DNA from: Eledone cirrhosa
Lineage: Eukaryota
Length of the DNA: 64,000 nt
Reading direction: 5' to 3'
NCBI GenBank assembly: GCA_964016885.1
Contig: OZ024741.1
Location: forward strand, 251,906,001 to 251,970,000
Both the position numbers and the translations under genes were made by a program. How positions within the stretch are numbered: the first letter of the stretch is position 1; each line of letters opens with the position of its first letter. The notes under the pieces are model-generated. The model was given only the letters and a program-made list of their open reading frames with translations. It was not told where the DNA came from and ran no database searches. Shown here in pieces: positions 13,189-63,698 of the stretch.

Positions 13189-14451
13189 CAGGGGTTGGTC
13201 AAAATAATGGAAACACCATAGCAGCATAATTTTGAAATATCTATAAAACCGTCAAAAGCTTGTTTATTTTTGTTTTTTGATTTATTATTAGTGTTGCTTA
13301 ATATGTTTTGTTAAAATTGCTGTTTCTTTTCAGATATCATCAGAAAATGGTAATTAAAATTCATTAAAATGACAGATCTATCGGACTTTCAAAGAGGTCA
13401 AATTGTTGGTGCTCGTATGGCAGGTGCTAGCGTAACGTAAACAGCCAAAATGTTTGGTGTATCAAGAAGTACTGTCTCGAAAGTAATGACAGCCTTTGAG
13501 AAAGAGGGAAAAACCTCCTCGTCGAAACAAAACTTCGGAAAAAAACCAAAACTTTCAGATAGGGACCGTCGGACTCTTACGCGAATTGTTAGAAAGGATC
13601 ACAAAAGTACAGCTCCCAAAATTACTGCAGAGCTTAATGACCACCTCGAGAACCCAGTTTCTACAAAAACTGTTCCCCGGGAGCTGCACAAAGCCGGATT
13701 TCACGGGAGGGCTGCAATCAGAAAACCACTACTTTCAAAACAAACGTTGCAAAGTGTTTAGAGTGGAGTAAAAATCTACAGAATTGGTCCCTAGAGCAGT
13801 GGAAGAATGTTATTTTCTCGGACGAGTCATCCTTTACCTTATTTCCGACCACCGGCCGAGTATACGTGTGGAGACAGCCAAAAGAAGCATTTGACCCAGA
13901 CTGACTTCTTCCAACTGTTAAACATGGAGGAGGATATGTGATGATCTGGGGGGCTATATCTTGGAAATCCGCCGGCCCAATGGTTTCCCTTCATGGCAGA
14001 ATTAATAGTCAAGACTATTTAAGCATTTTATCTGATCAAATTCATGCTATCGTTGCGGAACTGTTTCCGGAGGGAAACGCAATCTTTCAGGATGATAATG
14101 CACCAATTCACACAGTTAAAGTTGTTACTGAATGGCACGAGGAACATTCTAGTGAAGTTGAACATCTTATCTTGCCACCAGAGTCCCCAGATCTCAGTAT
14201 TATTGAACATTTATGGTGCATTTTAGAAAAACAAGTAAGGAGTCGATATCCTCCACCATCATCACTACAAGAACTGGAGACTGTTTTAGCTGAAGAATGG
14301 ACAAAAATTCCTTTGGAAACAATTCAAACTTTGTACGAGTCCATACCTCGTAAAATTCAAGCTGTAATTACTGCCAAAGGCGGTCCTACCCCATATTAAA
14401 ATTAATTTGTTTGAAATTTTAAGGTGTTTCCATTATTTTGTCCAACCCCTG
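13189..14451 (+). mobile_element. Full-length Tc1-like DNA transposon (DD36E, Incomer-like)
   Basis: 29-bp TIRs CAGGGGTTGGWCAAAATAATGGAAACACC (1 mismatch), TA on both sides, 1263 bp. Confidence 0.97.
13369..14399 (+). pseudogene. Tc1-like transposase, disrupted
   Basis: MTDLSDFQRGQIVG..., FSDES, FQDDNAPIH, SPDLSIIEH; stops at 13438 and ~13902, frameshift ~13740. Confidence 0.95.
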
Positions 14452-27199: not shown

Positions 27200-27325
27200 A
27201 TAACAAGGACGATTGGTTGCTCCTTCATTACATTTATTGGTAGGTGACGCGCGTTTCGCCACTGATCAGTTCAAGGTTCGATCTGTATCGATCCTACCCG
27301 ACTCAATGATCGTCAGCTCGGCGGA
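27200..27325 (-). ncRNA. Hammerhead-like motif with large loop-II insert
   Basis: CTGACGA-TCATTGA...TCAGTGGC-GAAAC-GCGC-GTC then AATAAA; stem I poor; 3' part recurs at 54985-55080 and 57783-57878. Confidence 0.5.
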
Positions 27326-27690: not shown

Positions 27691-27709
27691 GCCGCTAGGA
27701 AAAAGTATT

Positions 27710-27806
27710 ACCCCGACGGCAGAGCTCAAGCCTTTTCGACGGCTATTTCTGGACTAAATTAGAATTTTTAGCCTGGTGAATAAATAGCCGAACTTGTCAA
27801 GGGGGT
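27710..27806 (-). ncRNA. Hammerhead with U3-A8 core variant in PLE terminal repeat
   Basis: CCCC-TTGACAA-G..CGGCTATTT...AAATAGCCG.C-GAAA-AGGC(TTGAGCTCT)GCC-GTC-GGGG. Confidence 0.7.
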
Positions 27807-28497
27807 ACTTCTTATATGGGAAGATTGTAGTTGTCAAGAGGATTGGTTACAATTTGTTGTAAACACAAATAAGTCTATCATGGCATTTGGTGGGAGGTAA
27901 GGGTGGCTGAACTTGCCTGTAGAACAATAGGGGAGTGAATGGAGCGGTCAAGTGTTGAAAGTGATATGTATACAGCAGATTCTAAGGATAGTGTATGAAA
28001 TGGAGGAGGGAGGTTATAGAAAAGGTAAATCGAATGAGAGTAGGAGACAATAAAAGATAATAGAAAGAAATAAAAAATATATAAAATTAGATAGTGAGAA
28101 ATGAATAAAAACATCACAATACTATCTTACAATTACAGGTTAATAAGTTGAGAATAGAAAAAACTTGTAGAAATTGAGTAAACAAATACAAAATTAAAGG
28201 GGTTTAACACGTCTGCTATAAGTAGTTAGTAAAACGTATTCGGCCAATTCTATCTTAAAATTACAGGGGTGGGGGAACTGATGCTACAAAGGCCCGATGG
28301 GCTGCATCGAGGTAGGTGAAAGAGGAAAAGCAGACGAGGAAGGAAATAGGGGGTGGAAGGAAGTGATAGGATGAGACAGGAGGAAGAAGAAGACAAAGAG
28401 GAAAAGAAAAGAAAAGAAAGGAGATACGTCTACCTAAGTAAGCTGGGGTTTCCCCTAACTTATTCGGCAAGTGAGGGAGGGGGATATCAGCCCTTAT

Positions 28498-28950
28498 CTA
28501 CCCACCCGGGTCATTATGGGGTTTGAGGGCGAGGTAAGTCCTATACAATCTGTGTTTGCATGCGGTTACCAGTTCGTCTTTCTTGTTTAGGAGTTGGTCC
28601 TCCGAAAACACCATTCGTAATGTTTCCTCTGAGCATAAGTTACACGGACGGCATCCTCCCATGTAAGAGTTAGCTCTGGACAGTAAGCTCCAAGTGAGAT
28701 TGCAGGTTATATTATTATCTTGGAGGTCCCAGATGTGGCCCAAAAGTGTAGTGGCATGTCGCCGGACCGGGTTTCGGAAAGTATGTCGGTGTTGGTAGAG
28801 CCGGGTCTTGAAACACACGCGGTTAATCCTATATAAGCTTTGTTGGAGGTGTCCGTCCTCATGTTGCACAGGAAGATCATGTTATGTTCTCAGCATTTGT
28901 TGTTGAGGGGGCACATAGATCTATCAGGGCAGTTACACCTCCTGATCGGC
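28498..28950 (-). pseudogene. Naiad-type Penelope GIY-YIG endonuclease, disrupted
   Basis: CNCPDRSMCPLNNKC*EHNMIF...AYIGLT / frameshift / FKTRLYQHRHTF..LGHIWDL..W...CNLCSEE..LLNKKDELVTACKHR. Confidence 0.88.
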
Positions 28951-29410
28951 TCTCCACTGAATTCTAGGTTATTTCTTTAATTTTGTATGGTTATGTCTAG
29001 GTTCAACCCCTTTGATTTTGTATCAGTTCTGGTACTACTAAATTCTACAAGTTTTTTCTATTCTCAACTTATTAACCTGTAATTGTAAGATAGCATTGTG
29101 ATTTGTTTTATTCATTTCTTACTATCTAATTTTATATATATTTTTTTTCTTTCTATTATCTTTTATTGTCTCCTACTCTCATTCGATTTACCTATTCTAT
29201 AACCTCCCTCCTCCACTTCATACACTATCCTTAGAATCTGCTGTATACATATCACTTTCAAAGCTTGACCGCTCCATTCACTCCCCTATTGTTCTACAGG
29301 CAAGTTCAGCCACCCTTACCTCCCACCAAATGCCATGATAGACTTAGTTGTGTTTACAACAAATTTTAACCAATCCTCTTGACAACTACAATCTTCCCAT
29401 ATAAGGAATT

Positions 29411-29507
29411 ACCCCTTTGACAAGTTCTGCTATTTATTCACCAGACTAAAAATTCTAATTTAGTCCAGAAATAGCCGTCGAAACAGCTTGAGCTCTGCCG
29501 TTGGGGT
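29411..29507 (+). ncRNA. Inverted copy of the U3-A8 hammerhead
   Basis: ACCCC.TTGACAA...GACTAAA/TTTAGTC...GAAAC..GTT-GGGGT. Confidence 0.65.
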
Positions 29508-29521
29508 CATACTTTTTCCTA

Positions 29522-29977
<456 letters not shown>

Positions 29978-30227
29978 CTTCAGTGACAGCCATCTTTGGC
30001 TGTGACCTCTTCAGGCAGTCCGAATTAGTGTGGTAATGAGGAATGTTCTAACAACTGACCAATGAGAGGAGAAGAGGGCCTTTGACACTGAAATTTGTTT
30101 GTTTGAATTCATATGATTCCAGTTCCTCAGTGAAATAACAACCCAACCAGGAACTGGGCATATCAGAGTATTGACAAAATTATACACCTCAACAACATAT
30201 GTACTTGTCTATACCACACTAATTCGG

Positions 30228-30282
30228 ACTGCCTGAAGAGGTCACAGCCAAAGATGGCTGTCACCGAAATATATATAGCAGT
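30228..30282 (+). ncRNA. Type-I hammerhead followed by AATAAA; inverted truncated copy at 29978-30035
   Basis: ACTGC-CTGAAGA-GGTCACAGCCA(AAGA)TGGCTGTCACC-GAAA-TATATATA-GCAGT. Confidence 0.85.
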
Positions 30283-32666: not shown

Positions 32667-32868
32667 ACGAAGGAAATGTGGTATGGAACCAGGTGGACCA
32701 TAACGAACCAAAGTACTCAATACTTAGGGTAGTAGAGTGGGTAATAGGAACAAGTAGGACCCCGACGGGTTAGCTCAAGCCATTTCGACGGCTAATTCTG
32801 GACTAAAAGTCCAGAATTAGCCGTCGAAACGGCTTGAGCTCAGCCGTCAGGGTCCTACTTGTTCCTAT
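32666..32868. mobile_element. Fold-back element family A
   Basis: Same ends as 2137-2342; turn at GGACTAAAAGTCC. Confidence 0.88.
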
Positions 32869-32899
32869 ATATATATATATATATATATACATAACGGCG

Positions 32900-42220: not shown

Positions 42221-42264
42221 AAAATATAAATATTAATAAAATAGATGTTCTTTTGATCAATTAC

Positions 42265-42317
42265 ATTTTATTATACATATTTCAGAGGTACAACAGTACG
42301 TCCTCATCAGACAAAAT
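42265..42317 (-). ncRNA. Minimal type-I hammerhead
   Basis: ATTTTGT-CTGATGA-GGACGTAC(TGTT)GTACCTCT-GAAA-TATGTA-TA-ATAAAAT; 7-bp stem I. Confidence 0.78.
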
Positions 42318-42557
42318 ATAATGATACATGACATACCCTGAGATGTTAAATGGTTAATATTTAATCAAGGTAGTCATATATTAATACTTATATTTTAATA
42401 TTAATAACTCCTTAAAATTTATTTTACTCATTGAGTGCTTCCAATCTACTGTAAAACTCATTCTTTGACATAATTATCGAATATTGTTTAAGAACTTAAT
42501 ATTTATATCAGTATATGTTTGTATATATATATATATATATGTATATATAAATATGTG

Positions 42558-44732: not shown

Positions 44733-45018
44733 CAAAGGAGGTGTGGTAAGGAACCAGATGGACCATAACGCACCAGAGTACTCAATACTTAGGGTAGTAG
44801 AGTGGGTAATAGGAAAATGTTCAAGACCCCGACGGCAGAGCTCAAGCCGTTTCGATGGCTATTTCTGGACACAAATAGTCCAGAAATAGCCGTCAAAATG
44901 TCTTGAGCTCTGCCGTTGGGGTCAAACATTTTCCTATATATATATATATATATATATATATGCGTCCAGAATTAGCCGTCGAAACGGCTTGAGCTCAGCC
45001 GTCGGGGTCTTACTTGTT

Positions 45019-45021
<3 letters not shown>
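44731..45021. mobile_element. Family A fold-back plus separate half copy (44964-45021)
   Basis: Same ends as other copies; half copy starts at GTCCAG turn point. Confidence 0.88.
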
Positions 45022-45094
<73 letters not shown>

Positions 45095-53022: not shown

Positions 53023-54387
53023 TTGAAAAAGGAGGCCTGGAAATGTCATTATGAGAGGCTGATGAATGTGGAGAACGTGTGGGAGAGAGAGAAACTACCC
53101 CCAGTAGACCTGACAGAAGGACCAGCTATTGAGATTGACGAATATAGGGTCCAAGAGGCAATTAAAGAAATGAAAAATGGCAAGGCCGCTGGACCGTCGG
53201 GGATAGTTGCTGAGATGCTGAAGGCATCAGGAGAAGTAGGTATTAAACTGGTTACATGCATCGTCAATCAAGCTATATAAGGGGATGCTCTGGAGAGGAG
53301 CAATTATAGAGGCATAAAACTGATGGATCAGGTTATGAAAGTGGCAGAAAGGATATTAGCGCAACTAATTAGAGAAAGTGTGAAACTAGATGAGATGCAG
53401 TTTGGTTTTGTGCCTGGGAAAAGTACAACAGATGCGCTCTTCTTAGTGAGACAACTACAAGAGAGGTTCTTAGAGAAGAATAAGCCACTATACTTAGCTT
53501 TTGTTGACCTAGAGAAGGCCTTGATAGGGTACTCCGATCTGTCATCTGGTGGTCCCTAAGGAAACTAGGTGTGGAAGAATGGCTTGTGGGGACAGTGCAA
53601 ACTTTGTACAGAGGTACTCTAAGTAAAGTGAGGGTAGGAGTGGAGTTTAGTGAGGAATTCCAGATACAAGTAGGAGTACATCAGGGTTCGGTCCTCAGCT
53701 GGTCCTGTTCATTATAGTCCTCCAAGCCATAACAGAGGAGTATAAGACTGGCCGCCCATGGGAACTTCTCTATGCTGACGATCTGGTTCTTATAGCAGAA
53801 TCAGTAGAAGTGCTAGAGAATAAATTCTGGCTATGGAAACAGCAGTTGGAATTAAGAGGACTGAGAGTGAACATAGCTAAGACAAAGTTTTGATGAGTAG
53901 TAAAGAGGACAAAACTCTGATTCTTTTAGGGAAATGGCCATGTTCGATATGCAGAAAAGGAACTGGCATAAATTCCATAAAATGTACACGATGCAGATCT
54001 TGGGTACACAAGAGATGTAGAGGGATAGCAGGCAAACTAACAGGTAGGGAAAAATACGTATGCAGTAGATGTACAGGCAAAATTGGCAGTAGTAATCGCA
54101 GTGATAGACACATTTTTCCAATGCAGGTAGATTCTATAGAATTGGTTGATAGCTTCCGGTACCTAGGTGATCAGCTTAGCATGGGATAGGGGTGTTCTGA
54201 GGCCATAGTATCTAGAATAAGGATGGGTTGGGAGAAGTTTAGGGAGCTGCTTCCTCTGCTGACAAAGAAAGGTTTCTCCCTGAGTACGAAAGGCCGGTTA
54301 TATGATGCCTGTGTGAGATGTGCGATGCTGCATGGTAGTGAGACATGGGCAGCAACTGTGGAGGATATGCGACAGCTGGAGAGAAAT
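53023..54387 (+). mobile_element. RTE LINE RT region, decayed
   Basis: GKAAGPSGI, QFGFVPGKSTTDA, FVDLEKA, GVHQGSVLS, LLYADDL, Cys-rich finger, FRYLGD. Confidence 0.95.
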
Positions 54388-54664
54388 CATTAGATAAAAT
54401 ATATACAGTATTTCTTCTCCCAATCAGTATAAATCAACCACACAAAAAATCATTTAAACGAGGCTATAAGTTTCAAATGTACTTATGAAGAAATAATAGA
54501 CAAATGATATAGCTCCTTTTCCGTGACGTACATCTACAAAATATTTACCTAATATTCCTAGTAGCCTGTAGAAATTGACTAGACATATAGTTAACTACAC
54601 GTAATTAGGTACAATATCGAAGTTAGAAGAAAAATTGTACATAAACCTTACCAGAATCTCCATA

Positions 54665-54749
54665 ATCTCTACCACCTGGTGGTTTCGTTCACTTTTTGGA
54701 TATATCCCGTCTTGGATAAATCCTCAAGGCTCAGAACTCATCAGGAGAT
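54665..54749 (-). ncRNA. Intact-core type-I hammerhead with branched loop II (duplicate 57462-57546)
   Basis: ATCTC-CTGATGA-GTTC...GAAC-GAAA-CCAC(CAG)GTGG-TA-GAGAT; all three stems perfectly paired. Confidence 0.88.
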
Positions 54750-55118
54750 ACTTCAGTTGGACTAAGATTTTTCTACCATGATCCCCGCCAGAAATGAATT
54801 CAAAATAGCTAAGAACTATCACGTGGCCAGTGGTCAAGGCAGAAAGTTTGTGATTGGTGCCTGTCGGCAAGTAGGCTGGTTGATAGAAAGTGCAGCCGAA
54901 TACTGCCTAATGTTTTACTCAACCTTACGGGAGTATATATTAAATTTAAGGTTATATATATATATATATAAATATAGGATTACAGAGTCGGGCTAGATAC
55001 AGATCGAACCTTGAGCTGATCAGTGGCGAAACGCGCGTCACCTACCAATAAACGTAATGAAAGAGTAACCACTCGTCCTTGTTTTGATTTTACTATGTAT
55101 ATATGTACATATATATAT

Positions 55119-55277
<159 letters not shown>

Positions 55278-55375
55278 TAGATATATATATGAATTTGTTT
55301 TGCAAGGTTTTTTGATATCAAAAAGCGTGTGTCAAAACAAATACACACACGCAAACACAGAGACGGGGACAAGAA

Positions 55376-55406
<31 letters not shown>

Positions 55407-55469
55407 AATAAAATAAAAATGGCGTAGACATTACAGTACAATACAATACAATGGGAGGAAACATAATAG

Positions 55470-55513
55470 TACCACTGATGATGTTGCAGATGTGCAACGA
55501 AAGAACTTTGATA
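55470..55513 (+). ncRNA. Minimal hammerhead, family C (duplicate 58248-58291)
   Basis: TACCA-CTGATGA-T-GTTGCA(GATG)TGCAAC-GAAA-GAAC-TT-TGATA. Confidence 0.75.
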
Positions 55514-55715
55514 GACTATATATATATATTTATATCTGTATTTTTAACCGTTGGTCAGTCTATGATAAACATTGATTGCCAAATATATTAACTATGGAGA
55601 TATAAAATATATATAAGATACAGAAGCGTACACCAACCAAACAGTGAATGTGTTCTGTTATTATTTCTGGCAATATTATTACAACAATATGACCCTCCCA
55701 AAGTATAATTATATA

Positions 55716-55753
<38 letters not shown>

Positions 55754-55790
55754 TATATATATATGTATATATGTATATATATGTATATAT

Positions 55791-55857
<67 letters not shown>

Positions 55858-56242
55858 ACAACCAACCATGTTACTCTTCTTTCTTTAACTATTATTACTC
55901 CAAGTATAACCTGCATAGAAATTACCGCGAACTCGCGGTCAAACTAAGTCAAACTAAGCCGCACGTTAAAACCATCCACAACACGGAGTACTCTAACTGG
56001 ACTACCTCTAAATGGATCACCTATAACGATAACTTGTTATCCCATATATATATATATAAATATATCCCAGCCAACTTTTCAGGAAGCATGATGGAAGATA
56101 TTTTACTCAAACATTCGATTTTGATTTTAATTTTAAACCTTTCTTTACTGTTACCAACTCTTTTAAATTAACTTTTTTCACTGAATTTGACAAGATGGAT
56201 CTTAATACATTGAAACTGGTAATTTTATCATATACATATACA

Positions 56243-57184
56243 TCTAAGACCGGATGCCCATGGGAACTCCTATATGTGGATGATCTCACACCTATAGCTG
56301 AATTTATGGTTGGAACTAGAGAAGAAATTCCAATTTATGGTGGAACTAGAGAAGCAGAGACTAGAAAGAAAGGGTCTCAAAGTCAACCTGACAAAGACTA
56401 AGGTCCTCGTAAGTAGACGAGAAAACAGAACCCAGATCCCCTCAGGGAAATAGCCTTGCTCAGTATTTGGGAAAGGTGTAGGTAGGAACTCCATCAGCTA
56501 TTGTTCATTATAGTCCTCCAAGCCATAACAGAGGAGTTTGAGACTGGCTGCCCATGGGAACTTCTCTATGCTGATGATCTGGTTCTTATGGCAGAATCAG
56601 TAGAGGTGCTGGAGAATAAATTCTGGCTAAGGAAACAGCAGTTGGAATCAAGAGGACTGAGAGTGAACATAGCTAAGACAAAAGTGTTGATAAGTAGAAG
56701 ATAGGACAATACTCTGATTCCATCAGGGAAATGGCCATGTTCGATAGGTAGGAAAAGAACTGGCATAAATTCCATAAAATGTACACGATGCAGATCTTGG
56801 ATACACAAGAGATGTAGTGGGATAGCAGGCAGACTAACAGGTAGGGAGAAATACGTATGCAGTAGATGTACAGGCAAAATTGGCAGTAGTAATCGCAGTG
56901 ATAGACACACTTTTCCAATGCAGGTTGGTTCTATAGAATTGGTTGATAGCTTCTGGTACCTAGGTGATCAGCTTAGCATGGGATAGGGGTGTTCTGAGGC
57001 CATAGTATCTAGAATAAGGATGGGTTGGAAGAAGTTTAGGGAGCTGCTTCCTCTGCTGACAAAGAAAGGTTTCTCCCTGAGTACGAAAGGCCGGTTATAT
57101 GATGCCTGTGTGAGATGTGCGATGCTGCATGGTAGTGAGACATGGGCAGCAACTGTGGAGGATATGCGACAGCTGGAGAGAAAT
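56243..57184 (+). mobile_element. Two fused RTE RT fragments
   Basis: TGCPWELLYVDDL piece joined at ~56495 to a second TGCPWELLYADDL piece. Confidence 0.9.
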
Positions 57185-57915
57185 CATTAGATAAAATATA
57201 TACAGTATTTCTTCTCCCAATCAGTATAAATCAACCACACAAAAAATCATTTAAACGAGGCTATAAGTTTCAAATGTACTTATGAAGAAATAATAGACAA
57301 ATGATATAGCTCCTTTTCCGTGACGTACATCTACAAAATATTTACCTAATATTCCTAGTAGCCTGTAGAAATTGACTAGACATATAGTTAACTACACGTA
57401 ATTAGGTACAATATCGAAGTTAGAAGAAAAATTGTACATAAACCTTACCAGAATCTCCATAATCTCTACCACCTGGTGGTTTCGTTCACTTTTTGGATAT
57501 ATCCCGTCTTGGATAAATCCTCAAGGCTCAGAACTCATCAGGAGATACTTCAGTTGGACTAAGATTTTTCTACCATGATCCCCGCCAGAAATGAATTCAA
57601 AATAGCTAAGAACTATCACGTGGCCAGTGGTCAAGGCAGAAAGTTTGTGATTGGTGCCTGTCGGCAAGTAGGCTGGTTGATAGAAAGTGCAGCCGAATAC
57701 TGCCTAATGTTTTACTCAACCTTACGGGAGTATATATTAAATTTAAAGGTTATATATATATATATATAAATATAGGATTACAGAGTCGGGCTAGATACAG
57801 ATCGAACCTTGAGCTGATCAGTGGCGAAACGCGCGTCACCTACCAATAAACGTAATGAAAGAGTAACCACTCGTCCTTGTTTTATTTTACTATGTATATA
57901 TGTACATATATATAT

Positions 57916-58052
<137 letters not shown>

Positions 58053-58149
58053 TAGATATATATATGAATTTGTTTTGCAAGGTTTTTGATATCAAAAAGC
58101 GTGTGTCAAAACAAATACACACACGCAAACACAGAGACGGGGACAAGAA

Positions 58150-58184
<35 letters not shown>

Positions 58185-58483
58185 AATAAAATAAAAATGG
58201 CGTAGACATTACAGTACAATACAATACAATGGGAGGAAACATAATAGTACCACTGATGATGTTGCAGATGTGCAACGAAAGAACTTTGATAGACTATATA
58301 TATATATTTATATCTGTATTTTTAACCGTTGGTCAGTCTATGATAAACATTGATTGCCAAATATATTAACTATGGAGATATAAAATATATATAAGATACA
58401 GAAGCGTACACCAACCAAACAGTGAATGTGTTCTGTTATTATTTCTGGCAATATTATTACAACAATATGACCCTCCCAAAGTA

Positions 58484-58534
<51 letters not shown>

Positions 58535-58557
58535 ATATATATATGTATATATGTATA

Positions 58558-58633
<76 letters not shown>

Positions 58634-59017
58634 ACAACCAACCATGTTACTCTTCTTTCTTTAACTATTATTACTCCAAGTATAACCTGCATAGAAATTA
58701 CCGCGAACTCGCGGTCAAACTAAGTCAAACTAAGCCGCACGTTAAAACCATCCACAACACGGAGTACTCTAACTGGACTACCTCTAAATGGATCACCTAT
58801 AACGATAACTTGTTATCCCATATATATATATATAAATATATCCCAGCCAACTTTTCAGGAAGCATGATGGAAGATATTTTACTCAAACATTCGATTTTGA
58901 TTTTAATTTTAAACCTTTCTTTACTGTTACCAACTCTTTTAAATTAACTTTTTTCACTGAATTTGACAAGATGGATCTTAATACATTGAAACTGGTAATT
59001 TTATCATATACATATAC

Positions 59018-60349
59018 ATCTAAGACCGGATGCCCATGGGAACTCCTATATGTGGATGATCTCACACCTATAGCTGAATTTATGGTGGAACTAGAGAAGA
59101 AATTCCAATTTATGGTGGAACTAGAGAAGCAGAGACTAGAAAGAAAGGGTCTCAAAGTCAACCTGACAAAGACTAAGGTCCTCGTAAGTAGACGAGAAAA
59201 CAGAACCCAGATCCCCTCAGGGAAATAGCCTTGCTCAGTATTTGGGAAAGGTGTAGGTAGGAACTCCATCAGCTATTGTTCATTATAGTCCTCCAAGCCA
59301 TAACAGAGGAGTTTGAGACTGGCTGCCCATGGGAACTTCTCTATGCTGATGATCTGGTTCTTATGGCAGAATCAGTAGAGGTGCTGGAGAATAAATTCTG
59401 GCTAAGGAAACAGCAGTTGGAATCAAGAGGACTGAGAGTGAACATAGCTAAGACAAAAGTGTTGATAAGTAGAAGATAGGACAATACTCTGATTCCATCA
59501 GGGAAATGGCCATGTTCGATAGGTAGGAAAAGAACTGGCATAAATTCCATAAAATGTACACGATGCAGATCTTGGATACACAAGAGATGTAGTGGGATAG
59601 CAGGCAGACTAACAGGTAGGGAGAAATACGTATGCAGTAGATGTACAGGCAAAATTGGCAGTAGTAATCGCAGTGATAGACACACTTTTCCAATGCAGGT
59701 TGGTTCTATAGAATTGGTTGATAGCTTCTGGTACCTAGGTGATCAGCTTAGCATGGGATAGGGGTGTTCTGAGGCCATAGTATCTAGAATAAGGATGGGT
59801 TGGAAGAAGTTTAGGGAGCTGCTTCCTCTGATGACAAAGAAAGGTTTCTCCCTGAGTAGGAAAGGTCGGTTATATGATGCCTGTGTGAGATGTGCGATGC
59901 TGCATGGTAGTGAGACATGGGCAGCAACTGTGGAGGATATGCGACAGCTGGAGAGAAATGAAGCAAGCATGCTGCGTTGGATATGTAATGACAATGTACA
60001 TGAAAGACCAAGCATGGATGAATTGAGAGAGAAACTGTGTATAACAGGGATAAGTTGTAGTGTGCGGGAGAGAAGACTGTGATGGTATGGATATGTGATG
60101 CACATGGAGGATGACCGCTGGGTAAAAATGTGCCAAGAAATGCCAGTAGAAGTAAGACGCAGTAGAGGAAGACCACGATAAACATGGGCGGAGGTGGTGA
60201 GAGCAGGCCTCAGATCACTGAAGCTCACGGAGGAGATTACGAAAGACCATGACAAGTGGAGAGATGCTGTGTTGAATAGGATCCATCCCACCCTTGCAAG
60301 CAGGGAAAAGTGGACATAAAAAGATGATGATGATGATGATGATGATGAT
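59018..60349 (+). mobile_element. Fused RTE fragments running to the element 3' end
   Basis: As above, then MLRWIC..RERRL*WYG..RGRPR; CCCTTGCAAGCAGGG, (GAT)n. Confidence 0.92.
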
Positions 60350-62169: not shown

Positions 62170-63698
62170 CTTAGTTCTTTTATGTTTGCCGTTCACGTAT
62201 ATTACTATTATACATCCAACGGAACATGCATGCTTTGTTCCTTTCCAGTCTGCACAGGTCCTCTGCCCACAATGCCCATGTCTCACTGCCATGTAACATT
62301 GCTGTTCGTATACAGGCATCAAACAATCTGCCTTTCATTTTTAGAGGAAACCTTTTGTGGCCAACAGTGGTATAAGCTCTCTGAACTTTTTTCCATCCCG
62401 TTGTGATTCTGGCTACTGTACTTTCAGAGCAGCCTCTACCACTGCTGATTTTGTCACCCAGGTAATGGAAAGTGTCCACTATTTCTATAGAACCATTTGG
62501 GCAATAGAAGGAGCTAGTATCCTGTGGGCACTTGCTACTTATTGCACCTAAGCATCGGCCACATATAAAATCTATGTTCTTAGATAGCTTACCTGTGATC
62601 CCACTACATCTTTTATGCACCCATACTTTGCATTTGGGACATAAAATTGAATTTCTGCCTACTCCTTTCCTACACACTGAGCATGGCCATTTCTCAGAGG
62701 GCACCTGTGCCCTATTTTCCTTTCTACATACTAGAACTTTAGTCTTAGACAAGTTAACTTTATGGCCTTTTGATTCTAGGCAATGCTTCCATGTTCGGAA
62801 TTTCTTCTCTCGTTCAGCCATAGATTCAGCTATGAGAGTTAGATCATCTGTGTATAGAAGTTCCCATGGGCAGCCAGTCTTAAACTCCTCTGTTATAGCC
62901 TGAAGGGCAGTAATAAATAGTAGGGGGCTAAGGACAGAGCTTTGATGAACACCAACTTTTACGCTAAATTCTTCACTATATTCATTGTTAATTCTAACCT
63001 TACTGACTGTTTCTTTATACATGGCTTGTATAGCTCTCACAAGCTATTCATCTACACCTAGTTTTCTAAGAGCCCACCAGATAATGTATTGGGTTCTCTG
63101 TCAAAGGCTTTCTCCAAGTCAACAAAAGCTAAGTATCGGGGTTTACTTTTAGCTAGTTACTTCTGTAGTTGTCGTACAAGGAAAAGAGTGTCTGTGGTAC
63201 TTTTACCTGACACAAACCCAAATTGCATTTCATCTAGATCAATTCGCTCTCTTATTAGTTGTGCTATAACTCTTTCTGTGACCTTCATGACCTGGTCAAC
63301 TAACTTAATGTCCCTATAGTTTCCCCTATCTAGAGCATCTCCTTTACCCTTGTAGTAGTTAATGATGATGCTGTTACGCCAGTCATTTGGTATGACCCAA
63401 TTCTGTATTACTTGGTTTCCTATCCGGGTGACCATAGTATGTCCCACCATTCCAGATGCTTTCAACATCTCAGCAACTATCTCCGAAGGTCCAGCTGCCT
63501 TGCCTGTCTTCATATCTTTGATTGCCTTACTTATTATACTACTTTTAACTTGCACCGCTGGTCCTTCTATTGGATCGATTTGGGGCAAACTATCTTTTTC
63601 CCATTTATTCTCCTCATTTAGTAGTCTCTCGTAGTGACACTTCCAAGCTACCTTCTTATCAGTATCAGTGAGGGCAAGTATGCCATCATCATTACGGA
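62170..63698 (-). mobile_element. RTE LINE RT region, decayed
   Basis: ORFs 63157-63588 and 62180-63040: GKAAGPSEI, QFGF, GVHQSSVLSP, LLYTDDL, Cys-rich finger. Confidence 0.95.

Follow-up and report, generated by a model that had tools for sequence, protein, structure and literature searches.

A long-armed type I hammerhead motif in a high-copy dispersed animal repeat that is probably a Penelope-like terminal repeat

The stretch of DNA analyzed here (hereafter the window; 64,000 nt of animal DNA, rich in microsatellites and littered with transposons) carries a complete type I hammerhead motif at 54665..54749 on the minus strand. The motif lies within a high-copy dispersed repeat of ~570 bp (54385..54954, minus strand), which has a fixed end at 54385, likely its 3′ end, and reaches a (TA)n tract at the other. 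We consider it probable (about 0.6) that this repeat, with its predicted long-armed hammerhead, is the pLTR of a Penelope-like retroelement (PLE), most likely as a 5′-truncated fragment. The motif, the repeat nature of its host sequence, the fixed end, the decay of this copy, and a local tandem duplication are established. An earlier reading made from the letters alone (the sequence-only reading) had recognized the hammerhead correctly and had missed its membership in a high-copy dispersed repeat.

On the minus strand, the motif comprises stem I (5 bp; 54749-54745/54669-54665), the core CUGAUGA (54744-54738), stem II (4 bp; 54737-54734/54690-54687), GAAA (54686-54683), and stem III (5 bp counting A15.1-U16.1; 54683-54679/54675-54671) closed by the loop CAG (54678-54676), with the predicted cut at GUA after A 54670 (scissile bond 54670/54669). 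All type I elements were found, namely CUGANGA, GAAA, and a UH core around three helices, with helix I open. The canonical core, perfect stems of 5, 4, and 5 bp, CAG loop, and GUA site that the sequence-only reading described are borne out by the sequence, and not one of 2,747 dinucleotide-shuffled versions of the window yielded the 5/4/5 Watson-Crick motif, for which the analytic expectation is 1.4e-6 per window. For an animal repeat the hammerhead is unusually built, with a loop II of 43 nt and no unpaired base before helix II. Rfam left the motif unmatched both at the gathering threshold and at E ≤ 10, likely because of the long helix II insert.

Folding predicts that this 43-nt insert (54691..54733, minus strand) is unbranched, forming a single extended hairpin under an asymmetric internal loop, in which 54723-54714 pairs with 54707-54698 on the minus strand (ViennaRNA). 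A branched loop II with two hairpins had been proposed instead, but the models favored the one long hairpin (−18.8 vs −11.3 kcal/mol); when the ensemble was restricted to the hammerhead, p was > 0.99 for each of five long-hairpin pairs examined and 0.0 for each of six branched pairs, and the GGAT/ATCC pairing as originally written would require 2-nt loops. Both hairpin arrangements can be drawn because the two arms of the insert are near-copies of a single self-complementary 10-mer, and in the model the family letter at 54724 gives the long hairpin one extra pair.

The repeat was delimited by contig comparison, in which contigs of four of the ten listed runs (X1, X4, X5, and X7, from four organisms) were placed on 54300-55092 at 80% likeness. 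Run X1 (organism A) contributed 6,984 contigs, a count that includes the LINE and the neighbouring family, and every bin of 54381-54947 was covered; since the summed depth there was 484 to 62,979, compared to 4.6-16 for the single long contigs listed, this interval is a high-copy repeat. Matching pieces were also found in the runs of organisms B, C, and E. Contigs from X4 (organism B, one), X5 (organism C, one), and X7 (organism E, two) stop at 54385 with mutually unrelated flanks, the exceptions at this end being one X7 contig that begins at 54392 and one X5 contig that matches 54375-54413 only. Peak summed depth fell from 63,000 near 54385 to 22,000, 16,000, and then 12,000 towards 54920, as expected for 5′ truncation, and this gradient is a soft one, as depth was summed over contigs and also follows the divergence of this copy. 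Where depth dips over the ribozyme, this copy has a cluster of differences, and the dips are probably an artefact of contig placement. Three of the seven listed joints connect opposite strands, and the only one with readable geometry (X4 record 10, a depth-2 contig) runs forward over 54603-54633, then in reverse over 54484-54385, and then into flank, which, for an element read on the minus strand, would represent two pieces joined at their 5′ (high-coordinate) ends. No partial tandem copies of the repeat were seen among the joints listed.

Together, the fixed end at 54385, the depth falling away from it, and the head-to-head joints argue for a Penelope-like terminal repeat. Inverted truncated copies are described for PLEs (PMC8557442, PMC8969392, and PMC3846280), and hammerheads are general in PLE pLTRs (PMC4209133). 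The end at 54385 falls on ATT in the ribozyme sense, and ATT is the target that the PLE enzyme of Anolis cuts most frequently (PMC11167929); the predicted ribozyme cut site lies 285 nt upstream of this end on the same strand. In such an element, read on the minus strand, reverse transcription would start near 54385 and usually halt early, leaving 5′-truncated copies that lack the reverse transcriptase (RT) and endonuclease. In the active family, the ribozyme would have processed tandem precursor transcripts by cutting behind the GUA at 54670, most likely in a dimeric or protein-assisted form and not as a free monomer, and a G.U-rich rod between the ribozyme and the 3′ end may be part of the RNA that the enzyme recognizes. 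No RT or GIY-YIG open reading frame (ORF) was found within the 570-bp element, and none would be expected in a short truncated copy. Other features weigh against this assignment. The ends of the element (54385-54406 and 54933-54954) share a weak inverted similarity (16/22), which a pLTR does not predict and which counts weakly against a PLE. In addition, the 5-bp helix III is closer to the monomer-competent fungal type than to the minimal hammerheads of animals.

The copy in the window is most likely a dead relic. At least 6 of the 85 motif positions differ from the family majority among the 40 of 102 difference rows listed, 34 of which were analyzed (two outside the element, three minority rows, and position 54751 were left out). 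T>C or A>G rows fell on TG/CA sites in 8 of 15 cases, compared to a background of 62 of 361 A/T positions (17%), which indicates that this copy has lost CpGs. The six listed differences inside the motif spare the core, stem I, and stem II entirely (chance of such avoidance 0.06); one in stem III turns A-U into G.U and keeps the pair, and another is in loop III. The description of the hammerhead as pristine thus fits its core, but not a copy that is off the family majority at these positions and biased by CpG decay. A contig from organism E (X7) over 54690-54830 showed seven differences and one gap, the gap being outside the motif, and the five differences that are listed all lie outside the core and stems.

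A second motif copy identical to 54665-54749, at 57462..57546 (minus strand), was also claimed and is indeed present. Self-comparison of the window assigns it to the second unit (57182-57752) of a tandem duplication of ~2.8 kb, in which 53706-57184 recurs at 56502-59959 with 98% identity. The duplication junction is marked by a chimeric LINE fragment (56502..57185, plus strand; 68-72% identical to 62273-63657, with Pfam RVT_1 and PHD), which agrees with the downstream copy as far as position 527 (32 of 32 diagnostic sites) and with the upstream copy from position 554 onwards (4 of 4). This switch points to unequal crossing-over between two LINE copies, or to an assembly jump there. The chimeric LINE and the tandem duplication (or a misassembly) rule out an independent transposition of the second ribozyme copy, and the duplicate is not independent evidence. 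In LINE remnants at 62183-63043 (minus strand) and 53026-54387 (plus strand), the RT domain is immediately followed by a PHD finger (Pfam RVT_1 and PHD); these remnants are presumably of the RTE clade.

The rod named above is a predicted ~245-nt, G.U-rich hairpin 3′ of the ribozyme (54400..54643, minus strand), with about 87 pairs, of which 15 are G.U. Its folding energy was −62 kcal/mol on the minus strand vs −44 kcal/mol on the plus strand, and its z of −3.4 was matched by 0 of 100 shuffles, while z ≤ −3 was reached by 2 of 41 random non-microsatellite windows. When read as a DNA palindrome, the same interval was unremarkable (alignment score reached by 40 of 200 shuffles), and that interpretation was rejected. 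Family and cross-species differences appear largely to spare the rod, in tests that cover the listed rows, use unphased letters, and take the structure from this copy: 5 of 17 family-majority differences fell in the rod helices, although paired positions make up 174 of 266 (p 0.002), and at 3 of these 5 the pair is kept. With the majority letters applied, the rod folded at −59.8 kcal/mol, equalled by 11 of 300 matched random controls; with the organism-E differences (11 of 23 listed), it folded at −63.1 kcal/mol, equalled by 0 of 300. On the shared-pair measure, the observed values were reached by 17 of 300 (family) and 20 of 300 (organism E) controls. We regard the rod as the more interesting lead.

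The rod also bears on the foremost competing explanation, which we judge unlikely, namely a non-autonomous non-coding retroelement (a ~570-nt retrozyme- or SINE-like monomer) that depends on the enzyme of a Penelope-like element, with ribozyme and rod as parts of a structured, possibly circular RNA. Such an RNA would fit the strand specificity of the rod, the z of −3.3 for the fold of the whole element, and the lack of a protein match in any frame tested, and two reports (PMC7229834; bioRxiv 10.64898/2026.07.22.740005) describe retrozymes as self-paired RNAs derived from pLTRs that also occur as solo monomers. However, none of the seven listed joints (rows at 54940-54983 left out) ran head-to-tail from 54385 to the other end, the sequences flanking 54385 bear no relation to the opposite end of the element, and its length of 570 nt is above the ~170-400 nt reported for the circles of animal retrozymes (PMC7229834). 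No array of short tandem units, each with a type I hammerhead, was found in the window. A search for a tRNA-related (SINE) head returned no ARAGORN genes and no Rfam tRNA family at E ≤ 10, and decayed heads can escape such searches.

A miniature DNA transposon that captured a hammerhead, with 54385-54406 and 54933-54954 as decayed terminal inverted repeats, is improbable. The inverted similarity of the ends does stand out, as only 7 of 127,956 window 22-mers are that good, four of them from the two copies of this element, and 2 of 388 TA-tract edges reach 16/22, both of them in this element. Nevertheless, the sequence shows no target-site duplication, AT content is very high at both ends, depth is about five-fold higher at one end, and the inverted internal joints and RNA-strand-specific rod fit an RNA intermediate. 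The weakest explanation, the 5′ end of a host gene with a promoter, the ribozyme in its 5′ UTR, and a first intron, would account for the ordered succession of CCAAT, CACGTG, an ATG (6 nt beyond the cut site), and strings resembling a donor and an acceptor, and would parallel the hammerheads just upstream of start codons in fungal viruses (PMC13725137), but it is very improbable for a high-copy repeat whose fixed end lies 180 nt past the candidate acceptor, in which the spliced frame of this copy stops after 10 codons, promoter and donor motifs are at chance level, and no protein match was found.

Of the strings behind this gene model, the promoter-like and donor-like ones had been pointed out by the sequence-only reading. 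The promoter-like CCAAT ... CACGTG pair upstream of the ribozyme (54820..54857, minus strand) is present as described, but the pattern CCAAT-N(0-30)-CACGTG gave two matches in the window, both in this element, vs 0.6 expected, and the strings alone are at chance level. Likewise, the donor-like CTG/GTAAGG exists at 54651, but donor-like 7-mers are at chance level in the window (145 vs 184 expected), and the +5 position (54647), G in this copy, is A in the family majority (997 of 1,284 depth units). The candidate 86-nt intron seen directly in the sequence (GTAAGG ... TTTCTACAG; 54566..54651, minus strand) nearly coincides with the 5′ arm of the rod, and none of the seven contig joints listed is a splice joint across it. 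As for coding content, none of the six read-through frames of the element matched Pfam, and protein word and homology searches with the element frames gave no credible match, four frames having been covered beyond Pfam in part or by Pfam only. The sole match of one frame in 1.84 billion representatives (P0003) is an internally repeated protein that matched a hydrophobic stretch and was rejected as an artefact. A frame that begins at the AUG within the hammerhead core is first closed in this copy at 54726-54724, where both the family majority and X7 have a sense codon; a further stop follows at 54597, and the frame is without a homologue.

The overlap of intron and rod permits a more specific form of the Penelope-like terminal repeat, one that we would call a long shot: the intron 3′ of the long-armed hammerhead might pair with the last 80 nt of the element as the structure at which reverse transcription starts, so that only unspliced RNA would be copied. 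If true, this pairing would be a structural reason why these retroelements keep introns, and if the rod overlaps a real intron, the intron-retention puzzle of PLEs becomes directly testable.

How the ribozyme would cleave is a separate question from the identity of its host. It had been suggested that the motif could act as a monomer, with a folding prediction dominated by an alternative structure as the result that would speak against it, and the folding models point to such dominance. The best fold of the free 85-mer is not a hammerhead, as the core CCUG pairs with CAGG of loop III, and the hammerhead lies 2.6 kcal/mol above it, with a modelled ensemble share of 0.7% (37 °C); when 10-50 nt of flank are added to each side (25 °C), its share is at most 2e-4. 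These nearest-neighbour values ignore stabilization by the core and Mg2+, which matters for a gap of this size. For a dimer of the 85-nt unit, in contrast, the double hammerhead is the minimum-energy fold (−53.8 vs −46.6 kcal/mol for two monomers). With flanks of 10-30 nt, the best dimer fold of this copy is more stable than the double hammerhead by 7.4-8.1 kcal/mol, a margin of 1.4-2.2 kcal/mol once 13 family letters are introduced (majority letters, unphased, with four further in-range majority letters left out). A 2017 paper is said to have shown that small PLE hammerheads cleave as dimers.

That the family ribozyme nonetheless acts as a stand-alone monomer, like fungal and protist PLE hammerheads, is possible though somewhat doubtful on these models, and concerns catalysis only. 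The three complete helices would favor it, as would the small energy gap of the bare 85-mer and the family letter at 54660, which alone weakens the competing pairing and raises the modelled monomer share from 8e-5 to 0.11 with 30-nt flanks; moreover, a fungal PLE hammerhead with a large helix III cuts as a monomer (PMC4209133). On the other hand, with all 13 family letters together the monomer share was ≤1% at every flank length tried, the core CCUG is taken up by the CAGG of loop III in the best monomer fold, and the insert stands in place of the canonical short loop II used for loop-loop contacts. The family offers a clean test case for monomer vs dimer cleavage.

The presence of hammerheads in Penelope-like repeats is well established. 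The motif described here shares with the PLE pLTR hammerheads of Cervera and De la Pena 2014 (PMC4209133) the type I topology, canonical core, and helix I of 3-5 bp, as well as location in a dispersed 5′-truncated repeat and a predicted ability to form double hammerheads. It differs from the 56 metazoan motifs of Fig. S3 in that paper, in which loop II spans 3-9 nt (43 nt here) and helix III does not exceed about 3 bp (5 bp here); no unpaired base precedes helix II and no ORF is linked in our case. The contrast is partly a search artefact, because the descriptor used there would miss long inserts. With the fungal and protist PLE hammerheads (PMC4209133) and those of chrysoviruses and fusariviruses (PMC13725137), it shares a stable helix III, a variable helix II, and no recognizable loop I-loop II contact, but monomer activity was shown for those long-helix-III hammerheads, whereas ours is a predicted motif from an animal host with a much longer helix II extension. 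The animal non-LTR retrozymes (PMC7229834 and bioRxiv 10.64898/2026.07.22.740005) likewise have a type I hammerhead, high copy number, self-paired RNA, and no protein, but form tandem units of 170-400 nt, in contrast to the fixed end with unrelated flanks here; the 2.8-kb duplication is a genomic rearrangement, unlike a retrozyme array.

A further parallel is the Anolis Poseidon element PAc (PMC11167929), with an insertion 3′ end shortly downstream of the hammerhead and ATT at that end. Its ORF starts inside the ribozyme, while here a candidate start codon lies inside the ribozyme and an ORF is not demonstrated, and reverse transcription starts about 90 nt past the cut site in PAc vs about 285 nt here. 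Cleavage of the PAc hammerhead is reported there as dimeric or protein-assisted. By analogy, our motif resembles PLE hammerheads in its working, and membership in the PLE class is likely. What is new is the combination of a 5-bp helix III with a 43-nt helix II arm, which is not among the published animal examples compared; searches of the open-licence literature gave no description of an animal hammerhead that joins a helix III of 5 bp to an arm of 40 nt. As Rfam models miss this architecture, descriptor searches probably undercount such motifs.

Pattern scans of metagenomes returned 64 loci, none of them homologous to the repeat (the best BLAST matches were 17-nt pattern overlaps). A handful of these, including L032 (67-120 and 634-700, minus strand), L006 (431-481), L008 (790-840), and L053 (1303-1355), resemble unrelated hammerheads with a 27-43 nt loop II in a stem test, which suggests, at the level of sequence, that long helix II arms are not unique to this family. 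The two copies in L032 are about 570 nt apart and have differing inserts. Viral pattern matches (1+1 loci) did not fold as hammerheads and were rejected, and the scan of prokaryote genomes found 0 loci.

The window holds further ribozyme-like and transposon sequences. A second family, of very high copy number (summed depth ~295,000 in X1), contributes a minimal hammerhead at 55010-55045 (plus strand), where it stands head-to-head with the studied element across the TA tract, at 57807-57842 (plus strand), and at about 27240-27275 (minus strand); all three copies have CUGAUCA for CUGANGA, with C at position 8 opposite C3. A Penelope-like remnant at 27696-29521 contains a GIY-YIG-like C-terminal frame (28500-29000, minus strand) between 513-bp inverted repeats; this frame had no Pfam match and is, judging by its motifs, presumably of the Neptune type. 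The end of the remnant recurs elsewhere in many short head-to-head copies (2223-2368, 32744-32893, 44809-45048), and at about 28272-28310 lies a G+C-rich motif of structured appearance, for which Rfam gave no match at E ≤ 1. A Tc1-type transposase remnant lies in two frames at 13441-14399 (plus strand; HTH_Tnp_Tc3_2, DDE_3). Two other type I hammerheads were seen, one at 42260-42322 (minus strand) with a 12-bp AT-rich stem I and one at 30228-30282 (plus strand) whose helix II is extended by 20 nt and whose helix III contains an AUAU palindrome, an inverted partial copy of the latter being found 200 nt away at 29970-30035.
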